DNA of 44,176 nucleotides from Cyanophora paradoxa CCMP329 (Eukaryota > Plantae > Glaucophyta): contig QPMI01000431.1 in NCBI GenBank assembly GCA_004431415.1, positions 1 to 44,176 of the forward strand, given 5' to 3'. Every line of letters begins with the position of its first letter. Positions within the stretch are counted from its first letter, which is position 1. The notes below the pieces were generated by a model. It searched no databases and was not told where the DNA came from. It was given only the letters and a program-made list of their open reading frames with translations. The translations under genes and the position numbers were made by a program. Shown here piece after piece: positions 1-44,176 of this stretch.

Positions 1-193
1 GCTTCAAAGGAGTTCGATTCCATGCTGGGGAAAATATCAGACTGACATTCAGTCTAAGCACCATGGTCGTTACTTTAAACGACACAGCACCGCAGAAGAG
101 GCCGCCCCGATTATGATCGCATGGCGAGACTCTGCATGGTGCACAGGCCCATCTCAACTTTCCTACGCAAGACCCGAGACTTGCGGAAGTTAG
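1..193 (+). CDS. C-terminal AP2 DNA-binding domain, probably of an HNH-AP2 endonuclease (5' truncated, frameshifted)
   Basis: Manual reading across frameshifts gives FKGVRFHAG...HSTAEEAA-DYDRMAR-HGAQAHLNFP, the AP2 signature (GV...TAEEAA.AYD..A...G..A.LNF). End coordinate is approximate. Confidence 0.6.
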   Translation, partial: LQRSSIPCWGKYQTDIQSKHHGRYFKRHSTAEEAAPIMIAWRDSAWCTGPSQLSYARPETCGS

Positions 194-1204
194 AGATCAT
201 GCGAGAGCGTCTTGTCCACCGTGCCGTCGTCCGGACCACGAGATTTTCTCCGTTGACGTCTCGCCCTCCAGTACTCCTTGGATCCGATCGGACGGGGCGG
301 CTCCTCGGCCTTGTAGACGTAAGGACGTCCAGGGGGTTCGTAGAGTTTTGGAAGAATCGATGATAAGGCAGTGGTTATCCTGCGTGTACTTATCGAGCAG
401 GTAGTAGAAGGCGCGCTGGGAGATGATGTCGCCCCACTCCTTTGCGAGGGCCTCGCGCTGCATCGCCTGCGAGCACTTGAAAATGACAGCCAGATCAGTA
501 TTGGAGCGCAGGACGGATTGATGCCCTTGCATACTGCGTCGTGATAAGGGTCATGATTTGTAGTGGCGCCCCGCCACGAACAGCTCGTTGAGGCCTCGTC
601 GTACGCAGCCGCGAGTCGGAAATCACGTCGTCGAGCAGCACGAAAATCGCGGATCGACGGATCTTCCTTTCCGGCCAGCACGTCTTCCGACTTGTTGTGC
701 TGCATGATCGCCTGCTGCCTTCTGAATAAATGGAAGAGCACCCCCGGGTTGTACTTGGGCCAGATGAAGCGCTGCGGGATGTACTGCTTCCAGTACCCGT
801 TCAGGCGATCGGTCTGGCTGATCACGATACCCCCGGAAGGTGCCGAGAGGTTGAACATGAGATCGCGAAGGAAAAGGACTTGCCCGTGCGCCGCTTGCCG
901 ACGCAGACGACGGTGGCGTCCGGCTTGACGGTGTTCACGTCGAACCACTTAAGTTCGGGAGGCAGGCCATGCGCTCGATGCCGCCCGTCTTCGAGTTGTC
1001 GAGGAAGGCGTTTACTGCTCGGGCGTGAGCTGCATGCCGTCCTCTGTCATGCCCATCGCGCAGCTGGCGCCGGCGGCGGGGGCGTGCCCGAGCCCGAGCC
1101 GGTGGCCTGGCCGGCGGGGGCGGGGCCGCGGGCGCTGTGCCCTGGGCTGGGCGGCCTGGGCTTGGCCGCCTTCGGCTTCTTCGGCTTCTTGGGTCCTTGG
1201 CCAT
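190..1204 (-). CDS. A32-like (FtsK-HerA superfamily) genome packaging ATPase, multiple 1-nt frameshifts
   Basis: Stitched reading: VVCVGKRRTGKS (Walker A, ~877-915), LRDLMFNL, FVLLDDVISD (Walker B), LFVAGRHY, LITTQY, LRSNTDLAVIF. N-terminus is low-complexity K/P-rich and starts at ATG 1204. Confidence 0.9.
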
Positions 1205-1240
1205 TTTACCCCTTCATTCAGATTTTCTTGTGACCTCGGG

Positions 1241-1715
1241 ATGAAGATTCTCGGCGTGGATGTGGGGGTCATTAATTTCGCCTGGTGCCTCATCGAATTC
1301 GATCCGCAGACAAAGAATCCCAGATTCTCGACTGGCAAAAGATCGCCCTCTTCCCGTCTGCGCGCTGCTGTGGCCGCCTGTTGCGCGCCTGGTTGAGGTT
1401 ACTCGCGGCCATAGCGCCTTCGGCCTTCCCGACCAGATCGCGATCGAGGGCCAGAGGACGGGAATCAATCGCTGCATCGAGTGCACGCTCCACGCCCTCC
1501 TGTACGGGCGTGCGCGCATCGTGAGCCCGCGCGCCATCAAGCACTTCTTCAAGATCTCGAACCCGAGCTACAAGGAGCGCAAGCGCGGCGCCGTGGACAA
1601 GTGTCGCGACCTTGTACCCGCCGAGCTCGCCGGCATCGCGGATCGAAACGGCAAGCTAGACGACCTCTGCGACGCCTACTTAATCGCCCTCTACGCCGCC
1701 CTCAATCCGTTGTGA
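1241..1715 (+). CDS. RuvC-like Holliday junction resolvase (poxvirus A22 type), frameshifted
   Basis: MKILGVDVGVINFAWC (catalytic D), IAIEGQ (catalytic E), YKERKRGAV, KLDDLCDAYL (C-terminal acidic pair). Confidence 0.85.
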
Positions 1716-1747
1716 TCCCATTGTGATTTCTAGGCCCCGCCCGCCAG

Positions 1748-1912
1748 ATGGGATCCTCGTGCCGCAAGCCCAGGCCCCTCTGCTGCGAAATCTGCCGCCT
1801 GTCGCAGACCAAGCGCGGCTGGGTGCTCAAGGCGGGCGTCTACGTCTGCTGCGCCCGGTGCGCCGTCCGCTACTACGCACTTTTTTCTGAAGGCTGCTAC
1901 ATCCGTAGCTAG
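1748..1912 (+). CDS. 54-aa Cys-rich putative zinc finger (not in ORF track)
   Basis: MGSSCRKPRPLCCEICRLSQTKRGWVLKAGVYVCCARCAVRYYALFSEGCYIRS*, with two CxxC motifs. Preceded by GATTTCTAG (C at 1730). Confidence 0.5.
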   Translation: MGSSCRKPRPLCCEICRLSQTKRGWVLKAGVYVCCARCAVRYYALFSEGCYIRS

Positions 1913-1916
1913 ATCC

Positions 1917-2309
1917 ATGGAGCACGCCCACTACTGCTTCAAGTGCCGTTCCAACACCAAGCTCGCCAACGTCGAGGTGCGTACCAGCAAGAACAACCGC
2001 CAGGTGGCCGTCGGCTCCTGCACGCAATGCAGCGGCCGGGTCTCGCGCTTCATGCGCCGGGTCCTCGAGGAGGGGGCCCGGGAGACCAGCCCCCCGCCGC
2101 AGCGCCCCCAGGTGGCCCACGCCACTGGCCCGGCCGCCGGCTCGAGCCAGGCACCGGCAGCCCCTACGGTCCCGAAGCCCCCCGCGGCGCCCCGCGCGAG
2201 GAAGGCGGCGGCCCCGGCGGACGACTCGGCGCCCGCCGAGAGCCAAGTCCCGAAGCGCCAGCGCGCGCCGAAGAAGGCGGCGAGCGAGCCTGCGATTCTT
2301 CAGCAGTGA
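1917..2309 (+). CDS. DUF5679-like zinc ribbon with Pro/Ala/Lys-rich tail
   Basis: YCFKCR...TSKNNR...GSCTQCSGRVSRF matches the DUF5679 pattern. Upstream TTTTTTCTGA. Confidence 0.65.
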   Translation: MEHAHYCFKCRSNTKLANVEVRTSKNNRQVAVGSCTQCSGRVSRFMRRVLEEGARETSPPPQRPQVAHATGPAAGSSQAPAAPTVPKPPAAPRARKAAAPADDSAPAESQVPKRQRAPKKAASEPAILQQ

Positions 2310-2354
2310 TTCGGCGGCGCAACTGCCCGGTGCGCCTTTTCTGAAGCTTAGCCG

Positions 2355-2604
2355 ATGGAAGGGATAATTACAGTTCAGACTCGCCGGGGTCCGGTAGACT
2401 AACTTTCCGTCCTGATTCGCAGTGCCACTGCTTCGTCTGCGACTACCCCCCCACCTGCTTCCCGGGCCACCTGCAGTTCGGCCACGAGATCACGGTGGCG
2501 CGCGTGGGCGGGCGGGCCCGCCTCGTCTGCAGGCGCTGCGCGCGCGGCCTCTTCGCCGACTTTCGCAGGATCCGCGACAGGGAGCTCACGGGCAGTATTT
2601 CTAA
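2355..2604 (+). CDS. Small zinc-ribbon protein, frameshifted; end uncertain
   Basis: ATG 2355 follows TTTTCTGA. Stitched reading MEGIITVQTRRGPV-LTFRPDSQCHCFVCDYP-TCFPGHLQFGHEITVARVGGRARLVCRRCARG. Confidence 0.4.
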
Positions 2605-2624
2605 GTCCCTCCCCAAATTAAGAA

Positions 2625-2888
2625 ATGGCCTCCCTGCTGTTCGATAGGGATATGTACCAAATGCGCAACCATTTCGAGGGCATCTACCCGCCTCGCGTGC
2701 CGCAGGAGCAGTTCCCGCGCCCGCACTACACGGACCACCGCACGCACGGGCTGAGCAGGCCGGGGGCCGCCCAGCTGCTGCAGCACCACGGGGGCGCGGC
2801 GGCGGAGCGCGACTGGTCGCCCCTCTGGATTATAGCGGGGATCCTGGTGGGGTACCTCCTCTTCCGACCCAGTGTAATTTCTCAGTGA
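2625..2888 (+). CDS. Small protein with C-terminal transmembrane helix
   Basis: LWIIAGILVGYLLF; upstream TATTTCTAA. Confidence 0.55.
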   Translation: MASLLFDRDMYQMRNHFEGIYPPRVPQEQFPRPHYTDHRTHGLSRPGAAQLLQHHGGAAAERDWSPLWIIAGILVGYLLFRPSVISQ

Positions 2889-2900
2889 TCCCGTACCCCG

Positions 2901-3239
2901 ATGTCTCGATCTGTCCCTTACTGGGCCCCAATTGACACGCAAATTGAGATGCTGCGCGCTCGCATGCAAAAGCTGACGCTAGAGGACGACCCCACGGACG
3001 TGCCCGAGATTAAGGCGGGGTTGGCCACGCTGCCGACGGATATCGTCGAGTACATCCGCGATTGGGTGTACAGGCTGCAAGACGAGGCGCGTGCACGGCT
3101 CTGGCAAATCGTAATGGGGCAGCGGGCGGCGGCCAGCAGGAGCTTCGACGCGCAGAGGGACGCGGCCATGCGCAGGTGGGAGAGGCAGTTCCCCGAGACG
3201 TACGGGGGTGCGAACCCATATTTTTCTGGTGACGGTTAA
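2901..3239 (+). CDS. Hypothetical protein with weak F-box-like segment
   Basis: Upstream AATTTCTCA; LATLPTDIVEYIRDWV resembles the LP.EI...I F-box start. Confidence 0.5.
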   Translation: MSRSVPYWAPIDTQIEMLRARMQKLTLEDDPTDVPEIKAGLATLPTDIVEYIRDWVYRLQDEARARLWQIVMGQRAAASRSFDAQRDAAMRRWERQFPETYGGANPYFSGDG

Positions 3240-3241
3240 AC

Positions 3242-3520
3242 ATGCCGGAGACGCAGAAGAAGCCCGCGAAAAAGGCGCCCACGAACGGGCAGGAGAAGCC
3301 GACCAAGGCCGAAGTGAAGGAGGCGAAGGAGAAGCTGAAGGGACCGCCCGAATTTCCAAAGGGGCCGAAACCGCTGTACGAGGACGTCTCGCCCGGCGAA
3401 ATATTCGTGGCGATGCGCCCGACGAAGCAGGGGAAGAAGGGCGGCGATAAGAAGGACGGGAAGGAAGACAAGGCCAAGACCGATAAAATTTCAAAGCCCA
3501 CCCCTAAGAAGAGCAAATGA
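3242..3520 (+). CDS. Lys-rich basic small protein (candidate DNA-condensing protein)
   Basis: Very Lys-rich 92 aa; upstream TTTTTCTGG; overlaps the next ATG (ATGA). Confidence 0.55.
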   Translation: MPETQKKPAKKAPTNGQEKPTKAEVKEAKEKLKGPPEFPKGPKPLYEDVSPGEIFVAMRPTKQGKKGGDKKDGKEDKAKTDKISKPTPKKSK

Positions 3521-5445
3521 GGGGGCTCGCCTCGCGTTTTGCGCCCCGCAACGTGCTGGCAGTCCCGGGGGGCGGGGACTCGCACATCACGCCCTTCGAG
3601 AGCGATAAGTACGCGCACTTTCAGCAGATGGCCAAAACCGCGCTGCACCGCTCCGACGGGATGCGCGTCGAGGATAGGGCGAAAACCGACAAGCTCGCGG
3701 AGGTGGAGGCGCAGGCCATCGCCAACGCCTACTACATCAACAAATTCAAGGAGATGGAGTCCGGGCTCGACGAGGAGTACGAGGAGGGCTTCCGCTCCTG
3801 GCTGATGGGCCAATCCGCCTTTGCCATCGACGCCGCGAATCAAACGAACCGAAAGGCGCGGGGCGCGGGCGCGTGCGACGTGGACGGCAAGAATTTGACC
3901 ATGCTCCCGGGCGTGCGCGATTTTTGCAAGTCGAAGGAAGACCAGATCACAGAGTTCTTGAAACGCAAAAAGCGACTCGAGACCCTCGGGCCCATGAACT
4001 TGGATGACGCGTACTACTACTACAAGTACATCGTGAACGGCGAGGAGTTCAAACCGACGAGCATTTATGCGCGCGAAAACCTACCGGAGGAGAAGAAGAG
4101 CTACGCGGATAGGAACACCTCGCAGCCGTTCACCCAGGCCGAGCCACCCGGATCGGACGACGAGGGCCCGGGCCCGGACGAGGGCCGGCTGAGGGACACG
4201 CGCGCCGAGATGCGACGCCTGACGGCCGCAATGACCAAGCTCGTTAAGATTGCCGAGGGCAAGGAGCAGGAGGCGCGGATCAGAAAGAGGACAACGCGGC
4301 CATCGATGACAACGGGGCCATCGCTCTGGGTCGAATGCGCGGAGGGGCGCCAAGGAGGCGCTGATCCAGAAGGCGCTGCCGAGTAGGCGCGAACGGCCCG
4401 CAGAAGGCGGCGGGGGCGGGGGCGGTGGCGGCGGGGCGGCGGGGGCGGTGGCGGCGGGGGCGGCGGGGGCGGTGGCGGCGGGGACGACGGCGACGGAGGA
4501 GAGGGTGGCGGCGATGGTGGCGAGCCACAGCCACCGCCCCTTCCTAGCGTCCCCTCAACCCCGGCTCCATCGCCCGAAGCTTCCCCCCCGGCCGCCCCGG
4601 GCACATCCGTGGGAGCGCCCGCGGCCGGTCCTTCTGATGCCGAGCTGACGCCGGCGACGGTAGAGGCCGCGGTGAGGGGGGTGCTGGCTGCCGTGGGCGT
4701 TCCGACTGCGCCGCCGGCGACGTACGCCGCATCGTCCGCGAAGTCGAAAGACCGCAAGCTCAAGAAGGGCATAGATGCGGACGAATCCCGGGAGGCGAGG
4801 CTGGAGTCGCTGGATGCGCTGCGTAGCGCAAAGGGGGCGGCTCTTCTTGCCAAGGCGCGCAGACAGCTGATCACCGACGTGGCGGCCGATGCGGCCCCTG
4901 ACAGTGAGCTCGCGACCGTTTCGGAGTTCATCCAGACGGAGCGGCTGCAGGCGGACGTGATGGAGGCAGAGGCGACGCTTGAGGTACGCAAACGGGCACT
5001 CGAGGAGGCGGCCGAGCGCACACGCAGGCGCCGGTGGGACATTGGCCCCACGGGAGAGGTGATGCCGGCGCCCGCCGCGGGCCCAGTGCGCCCCCAGCGT
5101 GCCCCTCCCGCCCGCAAACAGCGATGGGACGTCGGCCCCGATGCAGCTCAGATTTCGGCGTTTCTCGCGGGCAACCCTGACGCGGAGGAGCGGCGCAGGT
5201 GGTTTGAGGATCAAAAGAGCGTGAAGATCCAGGGTGCCTACAGCAAGGCGCTCAAAGACATACAGAGGCGCTTCGGAAACAATGACGAGGCCCTCGGGAG
5301 CTTCGCGGAAATTGCGATTTCCCGGTACCACGCGGCCAAGGGCGTGCCCGGGCAGATTATTGCCAACGTGCCTGCGCGGCTGCTTCGAGATTATTTCTCG
5401 GGGGACGGGCCCGACATCGATTTTTGGAGGTTTGTGGACGCATAG
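3517..5445 (+). CDS. Hypothetical protein upstream of MCP; one gene split by frameshifts around a poly-Gly/Pro linker
   Basis: Track ORFs 3517-4386 and 4609-5445 join through the GGC-repeat tract at ~4405-4520. ORF 4609 has only a GTG start and no upstream motif. N-terminal domain has FRSWL...LPGV...GPMNLDDAYYYYKY. Confidence 0.6.
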
Positions 5446-5484
5446 GCGCCCATCCACAAAATTTTCTCAACGCACCCCTAAACC

Positions 5485-6942
5485 ATGGCTTCCGCGCTCA
5501 TCTCCACCCCCACGACCGCCCTCGCGCAGTCGCTCCTGAGCTCGAACTCGTCGGTGCACGTGCCCGACTCCTTCGACACGGCGACGCCGTTCGTGGACGA
5601 GGTGCTGGAGGTCAGCCCCGTGCAGGCCTCGCCCAATTTCGACTCCGTGGTCGATTTCGTCGTGCCCCACTCCGGCCCGTTCATCTCCGATGTCTGGCTC
5701 CGGGCGACCCTGCCCGACCTTGCGGACGACACCAAATTTTACCTCCCCAAGGCCGGATTTATTTTGCTCAAGAAGGTCAAGGTGTTCGTTGGGACGCAGC
5801 TCGTGCACGAGTACGAGGGCGCCTACGATGCGATCTACGACGAGCTCGAGCAGGACCGCTCCCTCCCGCACAACGCCAACCTCATCAACGAGTGCTGGGC
5901 GCCCCAGCTCCTTCAGCGCCGCTCCAACCACGGGGCCATGAGCCTCACCATCCCACTGCGCATTCTCAACGGCTTTGGTCGCAAGAACGCCGTGCCCCTC
6001 TACAAGCTCCGCGGCACCGGCAACGACCTGAAGATCCAGATCACATTTGCGCGCCTCAACGAGCTCAACGTCACCTACGCCTCGACCGCAAACCACACGG
6101 CCGGGACCAGCGCCGGCAACCTCGAAAGCGTCAAGCTCATGGTCCGCTACACGCACGTTTCCGCCTACGAGCTGAGCCTCCAGCCCAACAGCGTTACCTA
6201 CCCCGGCAAGTTCATGCAGTCCTACGAGGTCGGCTTCAAGTCGGGCACCGCGATTCGGCTGCCCTTCACCGGAGTTTGCTACGAGCTGGTGGTCGTTGTG
6301 CGCGATGCCACGCCGACGGCGGCGGCCAAGGAGTTCTGGAAGTTCCGGCCCCTCACGAAGATCGGCCTCAAGTGCGATAATATTAAGGTGGTGGACGACT
6401 CCGTCCTGGACGCGAATTTCATCCGCACTGTCATTTGTTCGCGCGAGCACCGCAACGTGCCGACGCGCAAGTTCCTCGAGCTGCTGCAGGGCTTCGCGGC
6501 GTCCACCGACGCGGAGGCGCAAAACCTGATTACGGCGCCCGCCGCCGGGGATGTCGCCTACGACGCAAGGGAGGCCGCGGCGCTCAAGGCCCTCCAGACG
6601 GCGCTCCTTGCCAACCCCTGGTCGGGCAACGACACACCCGTCACGACCGTGGAGACGCAGGACAGGACCAACAGCGACATTGTTCCCGCCTCGACCGCGA
6701 CCGGCCAGTTCGGCGTCGAGTACATCTACTCGCTGCCCTTCGGCACCGAGGTCGGAGACGACACCAAGATGTTCGGCGGCCTGGACTTCGGCGCCTTCAA
6801 GACCGTCGAGCTCACCCTCACGACGGCCAAGACCGGCGCGGGCAACCCTCCCGCTGCCTTCGAGGGTCACGCCACCATCTACTGCCGCTACTACAACGAG
6901 ATCAGCTACGTGGGCGGCGGCGCCTACCGCCGTTTCCAGTAG
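5485..6942 (+). CDS. Major capsid protein, Nucleocytoviricota-type double jelly-roll
   Basis: VDFVVPHSGPFISDVWLRATLP, LLKKVKVFVGTQLVHEYEG, LTIPL...AVPLYKL, LPFTGVCYELVVVVR, YIYSLPF...GGLDF, YYNEISYVGG parallel the NCLDV MCP motifs (I.R.GDL, IGGQ.ID, LPLIAL, FNHP.KEL, YSF...GxLNF, NYN.L). 485 aa with strong codon bias. Confidence 0.92.
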   Translation: MASALISTPTTALAQSLLSSNSSVHVPDSFDTATPFVDEVLEVSPVQASPNFDSVVDFVVPHSGPFISDVWLRATLPDLADDTKFYLPKAGFILLKKVKVFVGTQLVHEYEGAYDAIYDELEQDRSLPHNANLINECWAPQLLQRRSNHGAMSLTIPLRILNGFGRKNAVPLYKLRGTGNDLKIQITFARLNELNVTYASTANHTAGTSAGNLESVKLMVRYTHVSAYELSLQPNSVTYPGKFMQSYEVGFKSGTAIRLPFTGVCYELVVVVRDATPTAAAKEFWKFRPLTKIGLKCDNIKVVDDSVLDANFIRTVICSREHRNVPTRKFLELLQGFAASTDAEAQNLITAPAAGDVAYDAREAAALKALQTALLANPWSGNDTPVTTVETQDRTNSDIVPASTATGQFGVEYIYSLPFGTEVGDDTKMFGGLDFGAFKTVELTLTTAKTGAGNPPAAFEGHATIYCRYYNEISYVGGGAYRRFQ

Positions 6943-7020
6943 TCGCCTAGCTATAGCCCCCGCCCCTGTACGCCGATGTGAACCAATAAATTTTCCCACT
7001 GGGATCCTAACCGAGGCACG

Positions 7021-8130
7021 ATGACGAAGGGCCACTCTATGATGGACATTGGGGAGGGCTCTAAGAAGCAGCGCCAGTCGCTGAAGAACGACCTGAAGGG
7101 CGAGGTGACGGGCATCATCGAGAAGTATGCGCCCGGCACGATCATGCCCGAGGTGGCCGTGACGGATAAAACAAAGGCCGACGTCTACACGCCAGAGGAT
7201 AAGGCCCGTGGTCTGGGGTGGAACGAAGCCGTCGACACCAAGGCCCTGCCGGCCATGAAGTACACCCCGCAGATGGAGAAGCTGATGCGGATGGGCATTC
7301 GACAGCAGCTGCAGAATGCCTACCCCAACCGCCAGATCAACGAAGAGGACGTCGAGAATGCGTTCGCGCTGCGGAAGGAAATCATGATTCGCGATTTCGA
7401 CCAGTGGGCGATGACGGCCTTCGACCTGAAGCAGCCGGGTGTCGCGAAAATGCTCGAGGAATATTACCCAGAGCTGCTTGAGAGAATTACGAACATGATC
7501 GAGCAGGATATCGAAATTCAGCGGTTCGATAAATACCAGAAGGTTTTCTTCCCGATGAATTACGATGATCTCGTCATGAAGTGGGCGCGCGAGCGCGGCT
7601 GGATCAAGACGATGGAAGAAATCGAGAAGGAGAACCTGCTCGGCCCCGTGGGCCGCTACGGCTCTGCCAACCTTCGCGCCGGTTACACGCCCGACCTGTC
7701 CCCCATGTTCAACGCCCAGACCGCGCAGATCAGCGGGCCGGGCAACCTCCCCTACGGTCGGAAAGACATCGATTTCAGCAAGGGCAATCCGTTCAACGCC
7801 ATTCTCATGGACCAGCACGGCACGCGGGGCCCGGCCATGGCCACGGCGGTCCCGTATGCGGACCAGAACCTGCTCCCGTCGACCGTCAACCCCATGCCAG
7901 ATCTCGGGGAAGCCCAGGCGGATATGGGGCTAAGGAGCGGGATTGCGGAGGCGAGGGGCAAGGGCTCCGTTGCCGGGTCGACGGCGACACAGCTGGGGCT
8001 TCGGGCGACAATCCAGAATCTCGTTGGCGTCACGGCGTCAAGGCAGTCGCAAGTGCGGACCCAGATTGCCTCGAACATGTCAGAGGCGTACAAGCTGGCG
8101 GCGGACCAGTACAGGCGGATGAATACCTAG
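7021..8130 (+). CDS. Hypothetical protein downstream of MCP; probable distant paralog of the 3517 N-terminal domain
   Basis: 369 aa, upstream AAATTTTCC. FDQW...YPE-x-FPMNYDD aligns without gaps to LPG-x-GPMNLDD of ORF 3517. Confidence 0.7.
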   Translation: MTKGHSMMDIGEGSKKQRQSLKNDLKGEVTGIIEKYAPGTIMPEVAVTDKTKADVYTPEDKARGLGWNEAVDTKALPAMKYTPQMEKLMRMGIRQQLQNAYPNRQINEEDVENAFALRKEIMIRDFDQWAMTAFDLKQPGVAKMLEEYYPELLERITNMIEQDIEIQRFDKYQKVFFPMNYDDLVMKWARERGWIKTMEEIEKENLLGPVGRYGSANLRAGYTPDLSPMFNAQTAQISGPGNLPYGRKDIDFSKGNPFNAILMDQHGTRGPAMATAVPYADQNLLPSTVNPMPDLGEAQADMGLRSGIAEARGKGSVAGSTATQLGLRATIQNLVGVTASRQSQVRTQIASNMSEAYKLAADQYRRMNT

Positions 8131-8140
8131 AACCCCCGCT

Positions 8141-8150
8141 AATTTCTAAC
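8141..8150 (+). promoter_or_regulatory. Representative instance of the element-wide upstream motif WWTTTC(T)RR
   Basis: AATTTCTAAC with its C 19 nt before ATG 8165; about 20 similar instances precede other starts. Confidence 0.7.
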
Positions 8151-8164
8151 GCACACGCAAGCAC

Positions 8165-8494
8165 ATGGCAGCGGCGGAGGCGACGCTGGGCGAGCAGATC
8201 GAGGCGCGCTGGGGCCGCTTCCTCGACCTGCTGGAGCCGGAGGCCAAGGAGCCGGGGGTGCGGGCGCAGATTCAGTCGCTGCGCGGAATAGGCGCCACGG
8301 CGGTCATCGTTCTATTTAGGAGGCACATCAACGCGGAGGCCGAATTAATTAAGGCGCGGGACGACGGAGTTTTCGAGAAGCTGCCGCAGGAGTACGCCTC
8401 GGCCGTGCGCTCGCTCTTCTACGGAAGCGGACCCGAGCTGCGCGAGAAACTGTGGCTTTACATCGAGCTCTTCGTCGAGCTGACATCAGAGTAA
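8165..8494 (+). CDS. Small helical protein resembling a conserved NCLDV family
   Basis: IVLFRRHI...IKARDDGVF...REKLWLYIELFVEL resembles the I..F...I...DE.FF...K..IW.Y pattern recalled from NCLDV hypotheticals. Upstream AATTTCTAA. Confidence 0.55.
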   Translation: MAAAEATLGEQIEARWGRFLDLLEPEAKEPGVRAQIQSLRGIGATAVIVLFRRHINAEAELIKARDDGVFEKLPQEYASAVRSLFYGSGPELREKLWLYIELFVELTSE

Positions 8495-8517
8495 ATTTCT
8501 AAGGGGCAAGCGTAACG

Positions 8518-9321
8518 ATGGACCCCTCGGCGATGCTGGGCTTCGACGCGCTGGCCGTGGACGGGCCGAACCCGGTGGGGATCCCGCAGCCTCGGAAGAA
8601 GGGCCGCCCCGCGAAGGAAGGCAAGGAAAAGGGCGAGAAGGCGCCGAAGGCAGACAAGACGTCGCTGCCGGGCGACGGGCCCACGGTGCCGCCGACGGCG
8701 CCGAGCAAGGGCGCGAGCTTCAGCGTGCAGGAGCACATCGAAATGACGAAAAAGAAGGAGCAGAGCGTGAAGAAGGCGCTGGGGATCGACCTGCAGGAGA
8801 AGCCGCGCGACGAGGCGCAGACGGACGTGGACGAGAAGAAGCAGGTTCTGCGGCAGATCGCGCAGTACAGGCGCTCGTTCGGGGGCGAGCTGACGTCCAC
8901 GAAAAAGCTGAGCCTCGCGACGCCGCTGGACGAGCTGAAGGAAGAGTACGAGGAAATTCAGCGCGAGCTGAGCACGCGGGGTTCGCTGGAGGCGGCGCGC
9001 CTCTTTCTGATCGCGGGCATGCACTCGCTGGAGCACCTTAACAAAGCGTACGATCCGATCGGCCTGAAGCTCGACGGGCTCGGGCAGGCGACGCTCTCTT
9101 CCATGGACCAGGTGCAGCCGATCTTAGAGGAGCTGGTGATTAAGTACTCGCGCTACGTGACCCTGGGGCCCGAGGCGCGCCTGGGGATGGCCCTTGTGCA
9201 GACGGTGCTGGCGGTGCACGCGGCCAACGCGAACCCGGAGATGATGAAGGAGGTGACGGAGGCGGCGGCCTCGACGGCGGCGGAGCCCAAGGCGGTGGGC
9301 GGCAAGTTCAACGGCCTTTGA
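8518..9321 (+). CDS. DUF5767-like conserved Nucleocytoviricota protein
   Basis: LEHLNKAYDPIGLKLDGL...ILEELVIKY...GPEARLGMAL...VHAAN matches E.LN..YDP..LKLDGW...FEELY.KY...PE..L. Upstream AATTTCTAA. Confidence 0.7.
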   Translation: MDPSAMLGFDALAVDGPNPVGIPQPRKKGRPAKEGKEKGEKAPKADKTSLPGDGPTVPPTAPSKGASFSVQEHIEMTKKKEQSVKKALGIDLQEKPRDEAQTDVDEKKQVLRQIAQYRRSFGGELTSTKKLSLATPLDELKEEYEEIQRELSTRGSLEAARLFLIAGMHSLEHLNKAYDPIGLKLDGLGQATLSSMDQVQPILEELVIKYSRYVTLGPEARLGMALVQTVLAVHAANANPEMMKEVTEAAASTAAEPKAVGGKFNGL

Positions 9322-9375
9322 TTGTAAACGCTTGTAATCAATTGCACCAGAGAATTTACAATTTATTCGTCTAAA

Positions 9376-33877: not shown

Positions 33878-33906
33878 TTCGACAAGGTCGGGGTGTAAAT
33901 GAATGG

Positions 33907-34551: not shown

Positions 34552-36087
34552 ATGCCCCTAAAAGTCGTATTATCTTTGTCCGGAGGTGGCGCTCGTGGAA
34601 TCATCATAACAAGGTTGCTAAAAGAGATCGAAACAAGAACCGGTAAACGCGTTATAGATTTGGTCGATCTCGTAAGTGGAACATCCACAGGCGGTATTAT
34701 TGCTATCGGTCTCAATGTGAAAAATCCCGAATTTCCCAATGAACCTAAACTAACTGCGACCAACCTTCACGATACTTACCTCTATCATCTCCCATTGATC
34801 TTTGCGAATCCACGAAATATCATCTCAAATGCCCTTTTTAATACGAAATACGACGTAACACCATTAGAGACCGCCATTCTCTCTGTGACTGGGGAAGCTC
34901 TCATACAAGATTCACTAAAAGACGTTGTGATTACGACGTTCGACACAGTGAGTATGAAACCCATTTTTATAGCAAACGACAATGACTACAAGACCATACC
35001 AAGTAAGATTGCGGCACGTTCTACTTCTGCCGCTCCTACATATTTCGCTCCTGTCGATTACGACGGAATGTGTCTAATTGATGGCGCAATATCAGGTAAC
35101 AATAACCCAAGTGTTTGTGGTTACAGTCATGCGAAAAAGATATATGATAACGACGACGACATTATAGTTATTAGCATCTCGTGTGGTGAGGTTAACGAAA
35201 CCGACGCACCGAATGTAGGTTACTCATACGAAAACGTGAATACCTGGGGTATTCTTTCATGGATTGCTTCAACTTCTGGAAGTCCATTAATCAATATGCT
35301 AATGGCTGCAAGTGAACTTTCGGCACTTGAAAAGATGCATGAGTTTCTACCATATAATGAAGACCAAGGTTACGCTCGATACTATCGTATCTCAGTTCCC
35401 CTTCCAAAAGATATATTAAACTCCCTTGATGACAAAACAAAGATCCCTGAAATGATAGCTGCGACCGAATCGTATATAGAAGCAAACGACAATATGATTA
35501 ATAGACTCTGTGATTTGCTGGTAACAAACTATGAGATTAAGAACCCTGTCCGATCGTATGTGTCATCCACTCTCAATAACATACCTCCCATCGATGCTAA
35601 TTGGTATCTTCTGCCGGATAATGCGTTTACCGCTTCGTCTGCAAAATTCGGAAAGGAGGCATTTAAAGCCCGCCCATCATTAACTGGTTGGGAAGCGAAT
35701 GCATCCGCAATTAACGGAGTATGGGAAACGCCAACAGAATATCTGCAAATAGCATTCCCATATACATATGAGATCGCTTCGATAATTGCTTATGGGTCAG
35801 GTATAACAACTGCGTTTATTAAGACTTTCAATGTTGCAACATCGCAAGATGGGGTTTCATGGTCATATATCAAGTATGAAGGTGTGAATAGAATGTTTGT
35901 ATGTGAGAATATAAATAATGCACATAATTCTGGGGATGTATCATATAACGGGGGCTTTCCGCTTGCAATAAACGATGTTTTCTATATAGGTTTCCCACTG
36001 AGAACAAGATATATACGAATATATCCGCTGGTATATATAAATGCCCCGACCATGAGAGTCGATGTGACGGGCGCATTTATACGATAG
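34552..36087 (+). CDS. Patatin-like phospholipase fused to an F5/8 type C (discoidin) domain
   Basis: LSLSGGGARG, GTSTG, ARSTSAAPTYF, IDGA. C-terminal EYLQI...SQDGVSW...PLRTRYIRIYP...MRVDV. Confidence 0.9.
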   Translation: MPLKVVLSLSGGGARGIIITRLLKEIETRTGKRVIDLVDLVSGTSTGGIIAIGLNVKNPEFPNEPKLTATNLHDTYLYHLPLIFANPRNIISNALFNTKYDVTPLETAILSVTGEALIQDSLKDVVITTFDTVSMKPIFIANDNDYKTIPSKIAARSTSAAPTYFAPVDYDGMCLIDGAISGNNNPSVCGYSHAKKIYDNDDDIIVISISCGEVNETDAPNVGYSYENVNTWGILSWIASTSGSPLINMLMAASELSALEKMHEFLPYNEDQGYARYYRISVPLPKDILNSLDDKTKIPEMIAATESYIEANDNMINRLCDLLVTNYEIKNPVRSYVSSTLNNIPPIDANWYLLPDNAFTASSAKFGKEAFKARPSLTGWEANASAINGVWETPTEYLQIAFPYTYEIASIIAYGSGITTAFIKTFNVATSQDGVSWSYIKYEGVNRMFVCENINNAHNSGDVSYNGGFPLAINDVFYIGFPLRTRYIRIYPLVYINAPTMRVDVTGAFIR

Positions 36088-36266
36088 AAAAGAGAGGGAA
36101 TTTTTTCCGATTTTTTTGATTATATATATGTATATGTATACGTATATATACATTTTTTCCAAACATTTTTTTCTTGGTCAACCGGCATTACGGAGGTTTT
36201 GGTATATATAGTGTATATATGTCGTGACGTCACGTGTATATATGCGGTATATATGTCGTGACGTCA

Positions 36267-36508
36267 TTGGGGGAAGAAGTGTGATATGATAACTGGGGAT
36301 GAAGTATGATAACTGGGGGGAGAAGTATGATATGATAACTGGGGGATGAATTATGATAACTGGGGATTAATTATGATAACTGGGGGGAAGTATGATAACT
36401 GGGGGGGAGAAGTATGATAACTGGGGGGGAGAAGTATGATAACTGGGGGGGGAAAGTATGATATGATATGATATGATAACCGGGGGGAGAGGTATGATAT
36501 GATAACTG
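36267..36508 (+). repeat. G-run minisatellite, ~10 units of AAGTATGATAACTGGGGG(G)
   Basis: GATAAC at about 36288, 36308, 36334, 36355, 36375, 36394, 36416, 36438, 36475, 36501. Confidence 0.9.
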
Positions 36509-36620: not shown

Positions 36621-38020
36621 CTACTTTCGCGAACTGGATCTTAGATTTACCCGGGTTTGTGGGGCTGAATATGTCTCTTTTGAGGTCTGAAAGTCTGTAT
36701 ACCATCTCTGACTGTTGACTTCTGATAGTTTCTGGGTTCCTGCTATGGTTAACTTCTTTAATTCACGTTCCGCCTTACCTTTCTTCTTGGTTCTGGCTTG
36801 TGTTAACGGTTCTTCTGGGACGTCATCCGCTTTTTCGATGCCTTCCTTGCGAATTGCCGAATCGACCCGGGCTTCTTCTTTCGCTTGTTCAAGTGCATCC
36901 ACTGTGGGCGCTTCGTGATACTCAACACCTTTGATAGGTAACAGTTCGTGGAAAGCGAATCTCCCTTCGACCATTTCGCCGTTCGGATTTCGCAACCTGA
37001 ACTTGAAACCCTCTCTCCTTCGACAGTATAGACGATTCGCGACCAATTGACACCTTGTTTAGCGAATGGGTTCTTTTCTATTCTCACTCTCACAAACATA
37101 CCCTGTTTGATACCATCCAAGTAAGCAATCGACTTCTTGAACCTCTCATCTTCTAATCCGATAATCTCACGGTAATGATCTTCCGTCGTTTCTGCTGGTT
37201 TTCTCTTGGTTGCTGAGTGGATGGTATTATTATAGTTATACTCAATGTCTCCCAATACATCGAAGAATCGCGCTGTGTTGTTTGCTATGCAATAGTTCGT
37301 GATCAATCGTTTGATCTGCTTGTTAAACGCTTCGATTCTACCTTGGCTTCGATGATCTGCGACATCGCTTATCTGATGGTCTATGAACTTCTTAGCAAGG
37401 TAATTCGTGAACATGTTATTTGTGAACTCGCTTCCGCTGTCACTCTGAACGCGTGCGATAGGTCGAGGAACTCTTCGTTGTAGCTGTTCAAACGCCGCAA
37501 GCGCCGTAAGAGCGCTCTTATCTCTCATCGGAATGATGTAACCCGTGCGTAAGGTAGATTCCATCGCGGACATGAACGTATCGTATCCGTCGTTTTGGTT
37601 CTTGTATGCTGGGAAGAAGAGCAGATCGATTACGTAGGTATCGAGAGGTTGCCGAATCGGAATCATCGGATCTCTCTTTCTTGAAAGGGTCGGTGCGTTT
37701 ATCTGAACGACTTCCTGTTTATCATACCATTCTCTCATCTTCTTGTAGTCTTCCTCTGGTAGTTCCTTTCTCATTGCCCCGAAACCTTTGTAACCTGTGC
37801 GCGGATCGTAAAACTTCTTCGCGATCTTCGATTCTTTCGTTACAGTCTCAGTAGGCAATGCCTCCGGGATCAGTTGTTTAACCATCTCCGACTTCTTTAA
37901 GATTCGTGTGTTCTTCTCTTCGACCGGAATGGTTATCGGTAGCATGTTCCCTTGGTCTTCTTTCATGCTCTTCTTTACGATTTTAGGAATGGGTCGCAAT
38001 CCTATCTGTGCTGAGGGCAT
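36621..38020 (-). CDS. Polinton-type retroviral-like (rve, DDE) integrase, 1-nt frameshift near 37030
   Basis: YVIDLL (D), QSDSGSEF (D), RIEAFNK (E), YNNTIHSATKRKP, GMFVRV. C-terminus continues in track ORF 36621-37046 (FRLRNPNGEMVEGRFAFHEL). Confidence 0.9.
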
Positions 38021-38204: not shown

Positions 38205-41200
38205 TTAAAGACCAAATGGAATGCTGTGAATGCCGTCGGCTGATATCTTCCGTTTGCTATCGAGTTGGTTTAGAGCGACCCTTCTGCTCTCCAAGTCATA
38301 TAAGTTGTGGTCTTGCCTTCGCTTGTTTGTTACTGATACTGTTTTTATGATGCCTTCGAACAGACATCTCTTAAAATCATCAAAATGAACCTCTTTCGAG
38401 GAAGTCCCCGACATCTTTACTCTTTCGTTGGTCTCAGTTCTGAAAGCATAGAGTTTCGATCTCAGACCCACATACTCCATGATCTTTGCATTTGGGAACT
38501 CATTTTTATATTTACCTGGAACCATGCGGTTTTTGATACTCACGAGAGGATGGGATTTATCGTAATTGCTCCTATCGAGATACTCACCTATCTCTTTCAT
38601 ATCTTCGTTCAGATTATTGGTTTTCAGGAAAAGACAGAACGAATCGGTATCGTGGAACAGTAATTTAGCGGTTTCCCACTTCTTCCTTACTACATCATAG
38701 AAGAACCGATAGTTATGTAGTTTCGCAAAATCCAAAACGAAAGCGCCAATTGCTACGGGTTTATCTAAGTTCACATGCTTCGAATACATCTCAAAGGCAA
38801 CGGCATTCTCGTTTAATACATTGGTCGCTTTGATAAGCGGACTTGCTGCGTATTTCTTACAGAGTTTCTCACTGTTAGCGATCTTGACAGTTGAGCGACC
38901 CCTGCAAGATTCCAAGCATTTACCGTAAATTGCATTGTTCATGAGTTTAAAGAAGTCGCTTTCGAAATGGTTAGTAGATTCATGCCTGAGAAGAGTATTC
39001 AAACCAATGTAAGACTTCATGAATGGGAAGTAGCGAAAGAGAGAACCTTATTTATTTTCTTGATTTCAACACCCTTCTTAACGATGTAATTAAGAAGAGG
39101 TCGAGCAATCACGTATTTATTCTTGGGTGTAAATGTCGCTGTAAGTTTGGGGTCTTTGCTGATCTTTTCGCCCGTCAGATCTAATAGTTTCTGTTGATAA
39201 TCACCAAGCATCTCATTGGTGATCACTTCTTTATTCACAATCAGTGGGAAATCATAATGTTCTTCAAGCGATGTGGGGTATTCAAGGTCAACTTCAATAA
39301 ATGCGCTTCGACCCTCTACCTCTTTAAGTGCCTCTGTGACATCTTCCCATCGATAATCTCCGATAGGTAGTGGTTGGCTGAGAGCATACCCATAAAGATT
39401 ATTTGCGTCCAACAAAACTATATGATCGTCAGCATTCTCTACCTTTGCGTATCGTGTGGGCATGGTAGCAAATCCACCTCTAATGGCTCTCTCAACAAAT
39501 TCGTATTTCTCTACATCATCGATAAGTTCAATCTTAACTTTCGTATGTTTGAGCATAGCGTCCCAAGAGAGACCTGGTGCGCTAACATAATGTGCGGGAT
39601 CCAATCCATATTGAGAAAACGCCAATTTGCGGAATGCTTCAAACTTTCTCATTAAATCGCCCACATCCACAGATTGGAAATCCATGAAATGGGAAGCATC
39701 AATGAACTTCCACATGCCCCATTGAAGCGATAGGTATTGATCGAAATTCTTGCTCAGAATCTCAACACGAAGTTTATCGTCTTGCTGTGCAATCTTGCGG
39801 AATATTCCGTGTCCGCATTCATCCATGTGATCCACCACAATAGCTACTTTGGTTTGCTTCGAAATTCGCCGGTGGAGGTTACAGTTTCGGCATGCCTTTC
39901 CGATGAAATCGCCGGATTGGTGGCAATGATCTCGAACCGGGAAGTTTTCGTGGGTGAATCTCTGAGAGCAAATGTAACAGTGTTTTGTTACCTTGTATTC
40001 CGCCTTCTGATCATCTGTGAGTGGATGCATCGGAATATTTCTAAATAGCGTCTCAACGATTTCGGGTCTGATATCTTGGAGAGTTACAAAGAGAGAACCG
40101 AGCGGATCGATTCCCTCGAAATGGTATGCTCTCACTTCGTCTCCCATTACCACTCGCAATGAAACCGCTTTAATCTCACGTTTACTCCTCTGAGCATCAA
40201 TAGCGACCGAATGATCTTCGACTTTAACGTAACAGATCACAGGGAGCCACACAGTTTTACGCAAGTGTTGCAGACCGAATTCAATTACGCTTCCCGCTTT
40301 TGGGCATTTGCCTTTGCTCTCCTCCAATCAATGCAGCGATTCGCTTCAACATGCATGTCTAATTTCTCCTGAGTTCTGAAACGCGACAAGCAGGTTTCAC
40401 AGTAGTAAATGCGACCATCACATGCTTTATCAAACGTAGTTTTCAGAAGACGACTAAAAGACATGATAGTAATGTAGTGTCCCCGATCATCTTCGGTGTT
40501 TTCGATAAGTAAAAGATTAATCTTGGTCTTTCTTCTGGGTTACTTGATTGATGGAGAGATAGAAACACTCTTTGGCGTTATCGGCTCCGTAAATGTTAAT
40601 AGAAAGTTCGGGGTTCAGTTCTTCGAATCGATCGATTACCTCAGCATCACAGGCAACGGGAAACTGAATACCATCGAAATTGAGTTCATTTAACCATCGG
40701 CGTATTGGCTCGGTTCGTTACTCTTGTGTTTATTGATGTCCTTTCGATGCAGGTAAGCCAAATCGCATACTTGAAGCAATCTTGCCCGTCGATATTCTTA
40801 ACATTCACCGTCGCTTTCTTGGATGCGATCCATTCGGGAGTTGCGAAATAGCATCCTCCACAGGTGCATAAGACATGATAATGCTCTAAGTATTTCGATC
40901 TTCTCCAAACGGTAACTATCCACTTGCGTCATTTCCTCTTGCATTTTCTGTAACGCTTTGCGAACTTCTGTGTCTATGTTGCGGGATCGGGTAATTACGA
41001 AATAATCGCTGTAAATGAATTTGGTGATATAGATGCGCGGATTACCTACTTTGGTAAATTTGCAAACGAAAGTCAGACGGACTTTAACGGCTCTCAGTTG
41101 CTCTAAGCGGGTTTTAATGCGTTGCGGTAGACTTGGTGCGATTCTTTCGAGGAATTCGATAGCATCACGACAATTCATTTCGGGCGCGATAGGTCAACCA

Positions 41201-41470
41201 CGAATACGCTTGATTCATCGCTTGTCCATCTTCGATATCCGGTTCAATGCTCCTAATCTCTGTCCTTCACCATAAATTCCTCCATTCGTTGCATGCGATC
41301 GTAGAGGTCATTTGCAATCTCAGTGAGTTGACCTAATCGCGGTCGTCTATCTAAGATGGCGGTTCTCTATCGTATTCCGCTTCGGTGATCTCACCTGTAA
41401 CTAGAGAGTTCCTAACAATCCAAGTATTTCATTTTCTTTTCTTTGATCAGTCTGTTGTTTGGCGGGGCAT
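38205..41470 (-). CDS. Protein-primed family B DNA polymerase (Polinton-type, with endonuclease VII-like Zn module), frameshifted; start approximate
   Basis: CFKYAI, HYITIMSFSRLL, YYCETCL, CYIC...VRDHCHQSG...ACRNCNL, YGLDPAHY.SAPGLSWDA, IRGG, LDANNLYG, KLMNNAIYGK, HDTDS, GLRSKLY. Confidence 0.88.
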
Positions 41471-41726
41471 CTTTGCTATAAAGAACATTTTTATTTTGGA
41501 TTTTGAACGCATTAGTTCTAATGATTCTCACCGTTGTTTCCTTTGGATATATATAGTACATAGTTTCTCTTCCGCCTGTTATTGATACCACAATTATACT
41601 TTATGAACTTTGCAACCTCTTCCAATCACCTTCCACAACCGATTGGTTCATTTTGACGCTATTCATTTTCAACTGAGACACACGTTCAATTTTTAATCAC
41701 CAGTCAATTTTTATTTTTTATTCGGT

Positions 41727-41811
41727 TAACGGTGTAACAGGTAAATCCCAAAGTTTCGGATTTTCACCTCCTAGGAGCGAAGTTTGGATTTACCTGTTAC
41801 ACCTGTTACAC
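41727..41811. promoter_or_regulatory. Third copy of the palindromic GTGTAACA module, ~70 bp downstream of the helicase stop; putative origin
   Basis: GGTGTAACAGGTAAATCCCAAAG...TTTGGATTTACCTGTTACACCTGTTACAC next to T-rich DNA. Confidence 0.55.
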
Positions 41812-41878
41812 TTACTGTTTCAGTAAGGTTATAAAAAAAAGTATGAATTATCAGTAAGAATAGTATGTTTTGTTGTAA

Positions 41879-44176
41879 TTAGTTGGAGCCTCTACGTCGT
41901 CGTCATCGTCGTCCTCATCATAATCTTCTTTTCAGTCCGAGTAACCACGCTTCACCTGACCTCTTTCTCGAACAGTTTCAGACTTCACATTAAAGACTTC
42001 GCGGACTCGCTTCCAATACTGGCGGCATCGTTTTATCATCAACAGAACGATAGCCAGTAATGATAGCTTCACTCCTAATGAATCGTTTCGGCTTCCAGTC
42101 TTCTCATAAGTGCTGCGGAGCCACTCCCGATTTTATCGTTATCATTGAAGTATTCCAGTCCTGATCGATATAGACTGTGGCGGATTCATCAGCAGCTGTG
42201 CAAGATCCTGTTTCTTCCACATGTCCAAGAAGATCGACATTTGAGCCATCTTGTATTCGTCGTCATTCATGATGACATAAGTGAAGTATCGCTTTCTTCT
42301 CACCAGGTTGAGGGTTGGGCTTGAAGACGCAAGAGAAACGATAGTAAGAGAGTCGCCGGTAAATCGCAGCTCGGGTTTACTCATCCCCAGGTTCTCATTC
42401 GTCGATAAGAAGATTTGACCCATAGGAATTAGTAACAGGATCTTTGAACAGGGCGCAACCTTCATCTCGTTACCACCTGTAATCTCTTTGATCTTGCTAA
42501 TTTGAAGCTTGTCGCCATCTTCCGCTTCATTTGAAAAGATAATGCGACGACCCAGAATATCCGCAAGTTCAGTGTAGCGTCTGATGCATTCTTTTCGGTT
42601 TCGTCCAATATGACATATTGATTGTTCCGAAATACTGTCGAATTTTGCTTGACCATCTCCTGAACGAGAGATTTCCATTGGCTCCAATTCCAGTCCAGAA
42701 ATTGAACTTTTGAATATCTGTGCGACCACTCAGAGAGAAAGCGATCGAACCATCACGAAATTGCGCTCAATTTCCTCTTCGATGATGTCAGAGTAGATGG
42801 AAAGATCTTGTGACTTTCACAGAATCCACCTCGGGCAATAATCATAACCAACAGTCTACTGATCATGTCTTCTGGGAGTCCCCTTCGGAAAGTCATAGAT
42901 TCAGATCAATACGCATTTGTGAATCCAATCACATTGGTAACAGATCAAGTCTCTCGAAGAATGTCTTATCGTTCATCAGAACTGTGAGATCAGACAGAAG
43001 AGAAGTTCGGTAATTAGTCTGTTTGAGTTTCTTTGCGATACCAAGAAGAACTGTGATCTCTCTCCCAAAGATGGCACGATTCTCTTCATCACGAAGCGCT
43101 CTCTGAGCGAATTGCACAGCAGTTGAAGATAAGGCCGGGCAAACCCTGCAACTCAAACAAGATAGATTCGTTTCCCGTCTCATCCATCTCCAGATTCCGT
43201 AAGCCTCGTTGAACTTGAACCAAGTCTTGTTTGAATACTTGTAGCTGTCTCGCAGAACAAGAAAAGCAACCTGGGCAACATCATAATGTCCGCCATCAGA
43301 TCCAATCGACCGATCAATTAGCTTTTCAATCTGAATCGGTATCAGCTTGAAACGCGAACCGTCATAACTCGCTTCTTGCAATTGGTGCTATATTGAACAA
43401 TATACTTGTCTTTCTCGTTCCCTTGAAGTATATACCAATTGTTGGAGTCATGGCTTCCCTTGCAGCAGGGACAATCAGACCTTTGTTCTCAGCAGTGAAA
43501 CTGTAACCTTCTCGGTCTCATTAAGATTGTGGGTAAGATGAAACCAAATTCTTCAAGTTTCCGGAGAATGTGTTTCTGCAAATCCTCTTCAATGCTCCTA
43601 TCAATAGAAGAGTGTCCGCCTTTCGGAAAAAGGTAGTTGTCAATCATCCACTTTTTGGAGTTCAGCACTCGGTTCGATCAACTCACAGCCTTCCGCCCAA
43701 TGGTTCTCTGATCCAAGTTTACCGGGGCTTGGGGAAACGTTGATCAACCCAGCAGTTCCAGTGGACGCAATTGTCTTACAGTCGATCTTAGGATACCTTT
43801 GAAAGCACCCGCTTTATCCCAGATTTCACAGCATCGAAGTCAGAGGACGAGAGAAGTAAACATGATATCCTTTTTTGGTTTTAGCAAGAGGATTGACACC
43901 ACCGAAATCATCGGGGAATTGCTCCTCGATTTGTGAAATCCCTCTTTGGTCGAAGTCGATAACCACGATATTGCGAGCGAGAATGCCCAAGCACATACTT
44001 ACCGGATTTCAGGGCTTCATCGAATTTATCCCAAGTCCACGATCCGTCTTTATGGGCGAAAGGGGTTTTTTGGTATCGGGATCAACGGGTATTACGATAT
44101 TCTCAGACAGGACATCGTCTTCACGAAGCCAATCAACAAGGCGTTTCAGGATTTCTTGGCGGCAGCGTTCATTTCG
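41879..44176 (-). CDS. Prim-Pol (AEP) + D5_N + SF3 helicase, heavily frameshifted, 5' end at or beyond window edge
   Basis: LGILARNIVVIDFD and TKKGYHVYF (~43855-43990), HYDVA...FFERLD-NVIGFTN-FRRGLPEDMIS (D5_N), FWTGIGANG-S (Walker A, ~42670-42700), GRRIIFSNE...IKEITGGN; acidic tail, stop at 41879. Confidence 0.85.

Follow-up and report, generated by a model that had tools for sequence, protein, structure and literature searches.

Two multicopy endogenous viruses in the genome of Cyanophora paradoxa, probably joined by a polymorphic insertion of a Polinton-like element

Viral elements of two kinds lie side by side in a piece of the Cyanophora paradoxa CCMP329 contig QPMI01000431.1, and the question is whether they work as a helper and its satellite or live as two separate viruses. 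The whole stretch analyzed here, 44,176 nucleotides long, is called the window. The two elements meet at positions 22233/22234, and both continue beyond the window ends (position 1 and position 44176). The GC content was about 0.57 to 0.73 left of the junction versus about 0.39 to 0.44 right of it, with values per 100 nt of 0.61, 0.44, and 0.19 over positions 22101 to 22400. The GC content at third codon positions (GC3) was 0.82 to 0.93 in the GC-rich element (GC element) versus 0.37 to 0.54 in the AT-rich one (AT element), and blastn between the two halves of the window gave zero nucleotide matches. The original prediction for this DNA, a Polinton-like replicon nested in a mriyavirus-like genome, was thus right in recognizing two distinct viral elements with a sharp compositional junction.

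We consider it probable that two many-copy endogenous viruses, probably independent of each other, abut here, with a likely polymorphic insertion of the AT element beside or within the other. According to this explanation, many copies of a small GC-rich virus with a capsid module of the giant-virus type would be resident, and the rve integrase of an AT-rich Polinton-like virus (PLV) would have inserted the AT element at 22234, inside an open reading frame (ORF) that runs on without a break in other cultures or cells. For replication, the AT element would use its own protein-primed PolB (pPolB) and primase-helicase, starting from octamer hairpins, and for packaging it would rely on a capsid module beyond 44176, as other Polinton-like families in C. 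paradoxa do; the fibres and lipase would belong to its own particle. The two gene sets would then appear complementary because the contig cuts off both elements.

A stretch of 9.9 kb spanning the junction was present in 20 runs, all of one organism, each with 0.79 to 0.85 of its words. Therefore, both halves are resident in one genome, and the window is likely a stretch of the C. paradoxa nuclear chromosome. The contigs of four runs (X1, X2, X17, and X8) were aligned to positions 15700 to 26400 of the window; run X21, with 0.04 of the 9.9-kb words, was excluded from the depth and contig comparison. The depth baseline was the flat level at about 19.3 to 21.0 kb of the window itself rather than that of a single-copy host gene. 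The medians relative to this baseline were 10- to 23-fold at 15.7 to 18.2 kb, 0.96- to 1.76-fold at 18.2 to 22.1 kb (leaving out one bin with a short repeat), and 3- to 60-fold in the AT part. The AT element is thus itself multicopy. In three of the four runs, a contig matched the window up to 22233 and then continued in other sequence, for 744 nt in X1 (record 4), 2237 nt in X17 (record 11), and 2289 nt in X8 (record 27). In X2, record 19 broke off precisely at 22233, where a fork between two alleles would end it. These empty-site contigs, the uninterrupted allele that the original prediction had named as a check, support an insertion-like junction inside the ORF. Position 22234 is the first base of a 28-bp inverted repeat of the AT element, and contigs of X1 and X2 departed from the AT end at 22331 into unrelated GC-rich sequence. 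A recent polymorphic insertion is likely the best fit to the junction.

The interrupted ORF starts at 21286 and lies in a spacer between the GC element and the junction, which contains the following features.

18291 to 18920, forward strand: HNH endonuclease with the GC-element promoter motif, at baseline depth (HNH_3, E 1.2e-8)
20751 to 21050, no strand: octamer array, TGTTACAC four times and then GTGTAACA five times, mostly 21 to 22 nt apart (9 seen, 0.03 expected)
21147 to 21194, no strand: 48-nt hairpin (z -6.2), a multicopy island in baseline-depth DNA
21286 to 22233, forward strand: orphan ORF cut by the junction after 316 codons; on the empty allele, sequence continues for 0.7 to 2.3 kb

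At 22234, the GC3 along ORF 21286 changed from 0.64 to 0.28. No homolog of this ORF was found among proteins of 173 to 553 or 554 to 2000 aa, host gene models included, and it had no Pfam or PHROG family and no usable Atlas match. A single-sequence model was uninformative (pLDDT 34). The ORF is intron-free, and its CTAG level (0.30) was as low as that of GC-virus genes, versus 3.73 in the spacer. CTAG was 3.7-fold enriched in positions 18920 to 21285. The whole region of 18.2 to 22.1 kb, including ORF 21286, was at baseline depth and outside the multicopy GC core. The prediction that the AT element starts inside an ORF of the GC half was supported; that ORF may belong either to a variable arm of this copy of the GC virus or to other DNA. 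The hairpin at 21147 to 21194 had about 13 to 25 times the depth of its surroundings, with loose contig ends on both sides, and other copies differed on both flanks; it is possibly a small repeat or a site of recombination.

We next consider the GC element, which occupies positions 1 to about 18.2 kb.

197 to 1046, reverse strand: A32-like packaging ATPase, split over three frames, likely by contig-end indels (tblastn; Walker A at about 899)
1241 to 1715, forward strand: RuvC/A22-like resolvase in two frames (Pox_A22, Ydc2)
1917 to 5445, forward strand: small and medium GC-element ORFs, including DUF5679 (1917 to 2309) and ORF 3517 to 4386 (Pfam)
5485 to 6942, forward strand: major capsid protein (MCP), double jelly roll, with a fold of the nucleocytoplasmic large DNA virus (NCLDV) type (Pfam, model, Foldseek, tree)
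7021 to 9321, forward strand: conserved block of a 369-aa ORF, a 109-aa ORF, and a DUF5767 protein (DUF5767, E 2e-13; multicopy clusters)
9376 to 10158, reverse strand: 260-aa conserved protein (22-member cluster)
9487 to 15148, no strand: inverted duplication of 9487 to 12037 and 12612 to 15148, in which the 260-aa gene recurs in truncated form
15575 to 18222, no strand: small-ORF arm of the GC element at high depth (clusters of 6 to 15 members; median depth 10 to 23 times the baseline)

The MCP matched Pfam Capsid_N (E 1.6e-8), and its model (pLDDT 68.5) showed a double jelly roll whose best Foldseek matches were the capsids of PBCV-1, an iridovirus, and EhV (E about 1e-24). The ATPase was found by tblastn in three frames against the ATPase ORF of a viral locus (L136; E 3.7e-9), and Pfam gave no Pox_A32 match on its pieces. 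The predicted MCP and ATPase of this half are thus present. The predicted RuvC fell just under the Pfam cutoff (Pox_A22, E 3.7e-4, 21.1 bits, cutoff 22; Ydc2, E 0.045, for the N-terminal piece), and the single-stranded DNA-binding protein label given to the 260-aa protein found no support in Pfam, PHROG, or the PDB. As predicted, no replicase was found in positions 1 to 22233, and neither was an SF3 or SF2 helicase. VLTF2 and VLTF3 had no Pfam match in the scanned ORFs of the window, with the GC element continuing past position 1; across the window, Pfam likewise detected neither VLTF genes nor an RNA polymerase. An HUH endonuclease had no Pfam or PHROG match in the window, and a crude motif scan gave one off-frame reading only.

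In a word-indexed protein search, 14 of 14 MCP relatives had EukProt names, and the clusters looked up carried C. paradoxa accessions, with up to 99 to 100% identity to the window proteins. MCP gene models lie on about 27 differently named C. paradoxa contigs. The distance from the MCP to the 260-aa gene was four gene numbers in all 10 contigs having both, and the distance from the 260-aa gene to the homolog of ORF 15984 was two to five gene numbers in six of six. Homologs of the ORFs at 1917 to 5445 were found inside fused gene models (P0025, P0031, and P0032). Given this constant gene spacing across contigs, positions 1 to 18.2 kb represent one collinear, multicopy endogenous virus. Outside Cyanophora, MCP relatives had only 24 to 31% identity, and in a tree with 15 such outside proteins, the nine Cyanophora rows formed one long branch (support 100/100). 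No free relatives of the MCP or of pPolB were located among viral contigs or metagenomes, and tblastn of both against phage records gave no match. The literature yielded no description of the GC family or of a Cyanophora helper-satellite pair, though subscription papers and bioRxiv supplements may contain one. The GC element is apparently an undescribed glaucophyte virus family with giant-virus-type capsids. The family has at least three MCP variants, 55 to 99% identical, with adjoining genes 90 to 100% identical; this sequence pattern suggests an exchange of capsid genes between copies.

The AT element, from 22234 to the end of the window, has a different gene content.

22234 to 23340, no strand: left end with the 28-bp inverted repeat (22234 to 22261 and 22499 to 22526), 59-nt tandem repeats, and two octamer hairpins; depth up to 14 to 60 times the baseline
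23344 to 25933, reverse strand: S-adenosylmethionine (AdoMet) decarboxylase, a zinc-finger ORF, and two 281-aa paralogs, 36% identical (Pfam, sequence comparison)
25983 to 34503, reverse strand: two fibre-like genes, of 2048 and 558 aa, plus an ORF of 198 aa (PTR, E 8e-19; PHROG tail and virion matches)
34552 to 36087, forward strand: patatin-like phospholipase with an F5/8 type C domain (Pfam; patatin, E 5e-23)
36621 to 38020, reverse strand: rve-type integrase (rve, E 1.8e-4; PHROG transposase, E 4.9e-12)
38205 to 41193, reverse strand: AT-element segment between the integrase and the octamer hairpin
41727 to 41811, no strand: octamer hairpin directly downstream of the primase-helicase, 87 to 92% like the left-end units; likely an origin
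41932 to 44176, reverse strand: primase-helicase in many frames, continuing past the window end (PHROG primase, E 3.5e-5)

The pPolB and rve integrase expected of a Polinton-like element were found, pPolB in one frameshifted piece, where PF03175 scored 24.6 bits (E 1.5e-5), just under its cutoff of 25.8. In agreement with the original prediction, the AT half has pPolB, primase-helicase, integrase, fibre, and patatin genes, and no MCP, penton, or ATPase was found in the scanned ORFs of 22234 to 44176, where the element runs past the window end. In C. paradoxa, 366 Polinton-like MCP genes were reported, one cluster holding 272 of them and a second one 94 (PMC10120064), and adintovirus-like PolB and integrase relatives were described in contigs of the same organism (PMC8502044). 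Most simply, the AT element would be a member of one of these capsid-bearing PLV families of C. paradoxa, and its own capsid likely lies beyond 44176. Six representative PLV MCP sequences are given for C. paradoxa in Tables S2 and S4 of PMC10120064. Short motifs of these six were absent from the window, and the representatives are unlike the GC capsid; conversely, four motifs of the window MCP were not found in the available supplement, a weak negative as its table cells are shortened.

We then examined the cis signals that the original prediction had considered common to both elements. The octamer GTGTAACA occurred 0 times in 1 to 18198, 9 times in 20751 to 21050, and 10 times in the AT half. 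In the spacer array, the reverse copies (TGTTACAC) come first; in the AT element, the octamers form hairpins, with pairs 9 nt apart, one of them directly downstream of the primase-helicase. Array spacing and polarity thus differ between the two. In viral contigs, about 210 and 39 stretches were found for two octamer patterns. The test set comprised 161 loci, of which 119 had at least 4 kb of DNA and 84 had a distinct ORF of at least 200 aa within 400 nt; 47 loci with the match inside an ORF were dropped, and the 37 intergenic loci were scanned by Pfam. A primase or helicase adjoined the octamer in 19 of the 37. A plain count of Walker A motifs was weaker (16/80 and 6/39 versus 12/126 control positions). 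Among the adjoining proteins were those with DUF927, DUF3987, DUF5906, and VapE, which we take to be replicative helicases, and many of these also had Prim-Pol, DnaG zinc-finger, or Toprim matches. This distribution in sequence suggests that the octamer is a widespread origin motif. The array at 20751 to 21050 is likely a set of origin-type iterons that belong to a different element from the AT virus, and the arrays on the two sides are likely origin iterons of separate replicons rather than a common signal. The prediction of octamer arrays in both elements therefore held to the extent that arrays stand on either side of the junction; specific sharing did not hold, the octamer being generic, differently laid out, and absent from 1 to 18198. 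In unrelated viral contigs, octamers (GTGTAACA/TGTTACAC) stood no more than 400 nt from a DUF927, DUF3987, VapE, or Prim-Pol gene (octamer loci L008, L014, L024, L043, L045, L046, L048, L059 to L061, L068, L069, L075, L125, L138, and L151). DUF5767 or MCP matches in four octamer loci (L027, L033, L080, and L136) were rejected as close relatives, these being giant-virus-like contigs caught by chance.

The second signal, [TA]TTTCT within 45 nt upstream, was present at 14 of 21 GC ORFs (background 3.4%) and at 2 of 10 AT ORFs (background 3.2%). In the AT half, TTTTCT was not enriched (20 seen versus 26.9 expected). TTTTCT is therefore mainly a GC-element signal, and the claim that it precedes genes of both halves was not confirmed. 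A WWTCTA core, one of five patterns tried, was found upstream of 8 of 19 GC and 3 of 8 AT genes (P 0.004 for AT). TCTA is the late promoter of mavirus and CroV (PMC8547959), which speaks for late transcription of the giant-virus kind and not for a partnership private to the two elements. The helper-specific shared cis signals that would mark a satellite pair were not found: the octamer is generic, TTTTCT stands at 2 of 10 AT ORFs, and WWTCTA is weak.

Several observations weigh against two independent viruses joined by an insertion. No replicase or integrase was found in the GC family that would account for its multicopy state; contig depth does not equal copy number; only one AT terminus lies inside the window, with the target-site duplication and the second end beyond view; the WWTCTA core is weakly shared by the two halves; no capsid gene was seen linked to the AT element, its tie to the 366 MCPs being inferred; and one of the six PLV MCP rows shares a contig (tig00020936) with a GC-type MCP, which is no more than chance could give with 27 contigs bearing GC-type MCPs. 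Among the matches listed (32 listed, 2361 further), no contig bridged 22233/22234, and record 12 of X17 began at 22234 with two letters that did not align to the window, so that the join may be a misassembly. The last points favor an assembly or library chimera between a baseline-depth locus and a multicopy AT copy from elsewhere, as do the uninterrupted site at full baseline depth in three of four runs, the indels of the window relative to run contigs (5 to 7 gaps in 18686 to 21175 or the covered part), and the frameshifts concentrated at both window ends. Those frameshifts, being clustered at contig ends in a window with indels against run contigs, were rejected as evidence of decay. A chimeric join would, however, be expected to fall at a random place in the AT element and not at the first base of its inverted repeat, and the X2 contig halts at 22233 as at an allele fork; we regard a chimera as unlikely. 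A somewhat better, still doubtful case can be made that 18.2 to 22.2 kb is a variable replication arm of the GC virus, with the array as origin and ORF 21286 as the start of a primase-helicase cut by the AT insertion, which would be why the GC half lacks a replicase. The frequent primase-helicases beside the octamer, an empty allele running on for at least 2.2 kb, the intron-free and CTAG-poor ORF, the GC-core-like depth of the hairpin at 21147 to 21194, and a gamadvirus SF3_hel2 whose N-terminal domain has no known relative (PMC11253617) agree with this. However, ORF 21286 had no homolog at 173 to 2000 aa and no primase similarity, other copies differ after the hairpin, and 2.3 kb of CTAG-rich non-coding DNA separates the ORF from the GC core.

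About equally tentative is the proposal that one or both elements are virophage-like and that a giant virus, itself unseen, activates them by way of a late promoter of the TCTA type. The WWTCTA counts, the promoter precedent, and the failure to find VLTF or RNA polymerase in the window agree with it; against it, the motif is short, picked after the fact, and weak among the AT genes, no giant virus of a glaucophyte was found, and VLTF genes may precede position 1. Both this proposal and a damaged replication arm are compatible with two abutting viruses. It is far less probable that, as originally predicted, the AT element is a satellite without a capsid that integrates into the GC virus; it would then borrow the capsid and ATPase of the GC virus and might lend it a replicase. 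The complementary gene sets inside the window, the GC family without a detected replicase, the weakly shared WWTCTA, and octamers on either side of the junction had suggested such a pair. Against such a pair stand the following: the AT element is multicopy and cut off by the contig end, the DNA it interrupts does not rise above the baseline depth, PLV MCPs of other kinds number in the hundreds in C. paradoxa, the cis signals are unspecific, and the halves differ in GC3 and share no nucleotide similarity. Slightly less credible still is a resident partnership, in which a replicase-less dwarf virus would receive integrase and polymerase from a capsid-less Polinton-like replicon inserting at its origin-bearing arm, and the replicon would be packaged in the dwarf shell with its own fibres.

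Two abutting viruses remain our preferred explanation, and each has known counterparts. The GC element works like a mriyavirus or an NCLDV-like dwarf virus. Mriyaviruses are defined by MCP, ATPase, VLTF2, VLTF3, RuvC, HUH, and usually a helicase (PMC11253617). Because VLTF2, VLTF3, and HUH were not found in the window and RuvC was weak, the element was not assigned to Mriyaviricetes; of the predicted mriyavirus-like set, only MCP and ATPase stood firmly. With Gamadviridae and Phaglo-G it shares an NCLDV-type double jelly-roll MCP, an A32 ATPase, and the lack of a DNA polymerase, and it has a candidate for their RuvC; Phaglo-G (10.1101/2022.07.28.501842) is likewise GC-rich (61%) and from an algal genome assembly. 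It differs from Mriyaviricetes in that VLTF2, VLTF3, HUH, and helicase were not found in the window, in MCP identity of at most about 30% outside Cyanophora, in its presence on about 27 contigs, and in its glaucophyte host. NCLDV-like capsid modules in elements of 15 to 30 kb are also known from the NCLDV-like PLV groups Zoravirus/VC102, VC134, VC218, and Zephyr/VC40 (10.64898/2026.06.19.733378). VC40 members are without detectable replication genes in that study, a precedent for a replicase-less capsid virus. The available part of that source mentions no Cyanophora or glaucophyte and no endogenous Zephyr, and the GC element was compared with it by description only.

The AT element resembles protist endogenous PLVs and Maverick-Polintons in its pPolB, rve integrase, primase-helicase, low GC relative to the host, and many copies (PMC10120064; PMC8502044). 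Unlike protist PLVs, it encodes AdoMet decarboxylase along with very long repeat fibres, and its capsid module and right terminus lie outside the window. Nested endogenous viruses have already been reported in other hosts: in Halocafeteria seosinensis, 5 PLVs and 9 virophages are nested in other viral elements (10.64898/2026.07.28.741278). Shared with these and with the Cafeteria EMALEs would be an endogenous virus inside another viral element, a strain-specific insertion site, and TCTA-like promoters (10.64898/2026.07.28.741278; PMC8547959); here, however, the neighbor has an NCLDV-type capsid, and the target ORF 21286 is of uncertain viral origin. The GC element provides dozens of near-identical copies of a small virus with a Nucleocytoviricota-type capsid in a cultured glaucophyte. 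The family would be a tractable addition to the mriyavirus/PLV continuum, which is thought to resemble giant-virus ancestors, and its multicopy state without a detected integrase or replicase is a testable question. The empty and filled sites suggest that integration of a Polinton-like virus may be ongoing in cultures kept in the laboratory. A helper-satellite system would be much more surprising if true, and the evidence points away from it.

Other features of the two elements were as follows. The inverted duplication in the GC element was 95% identical overall, with 99 to 100% identity in the outer 2 kb and 71 to 91% in the inner part, and it was bounded by a module present five times (near 10680, 12495, 13905, 15301, and 15548). 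Either an invertible segment or an effect of assembly may underlie this duplication, which is likely specific to this copy; a reading as terminal repeats was rejected because the gene order in other contigs runs straight across. Two small cysteine-rich, zinc-finger-like readings, one apparently frameshifted, lie downstream of the GC promoter motif (1748 to 1890 and 2354 to 2600). ORFs 3517 and 7021, alike by eye, were rejected as paralogs (BLASTP, E 0.77). An Rfam scan gave 0 matches. Within the Polinton-like element, the AdoMet decarboxylase gene lies at 23344 to 23742; two loci with relatives were located, both unrelated tailed phages, and no free relatives were located for the 281-aa ORF. 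Atlas leads of ORF 25088 to phage hypotheticals, all below 0.9, were not used. CTAG was nearly absent from the AT element (22234 to 44176; 3 seen versus 23 expected). Between the convergent patatin and integrase genes, an AT-rich spacer with ATGATAACTGGGG repeats (36259 to 36508) may be a module boundary or a second origin.

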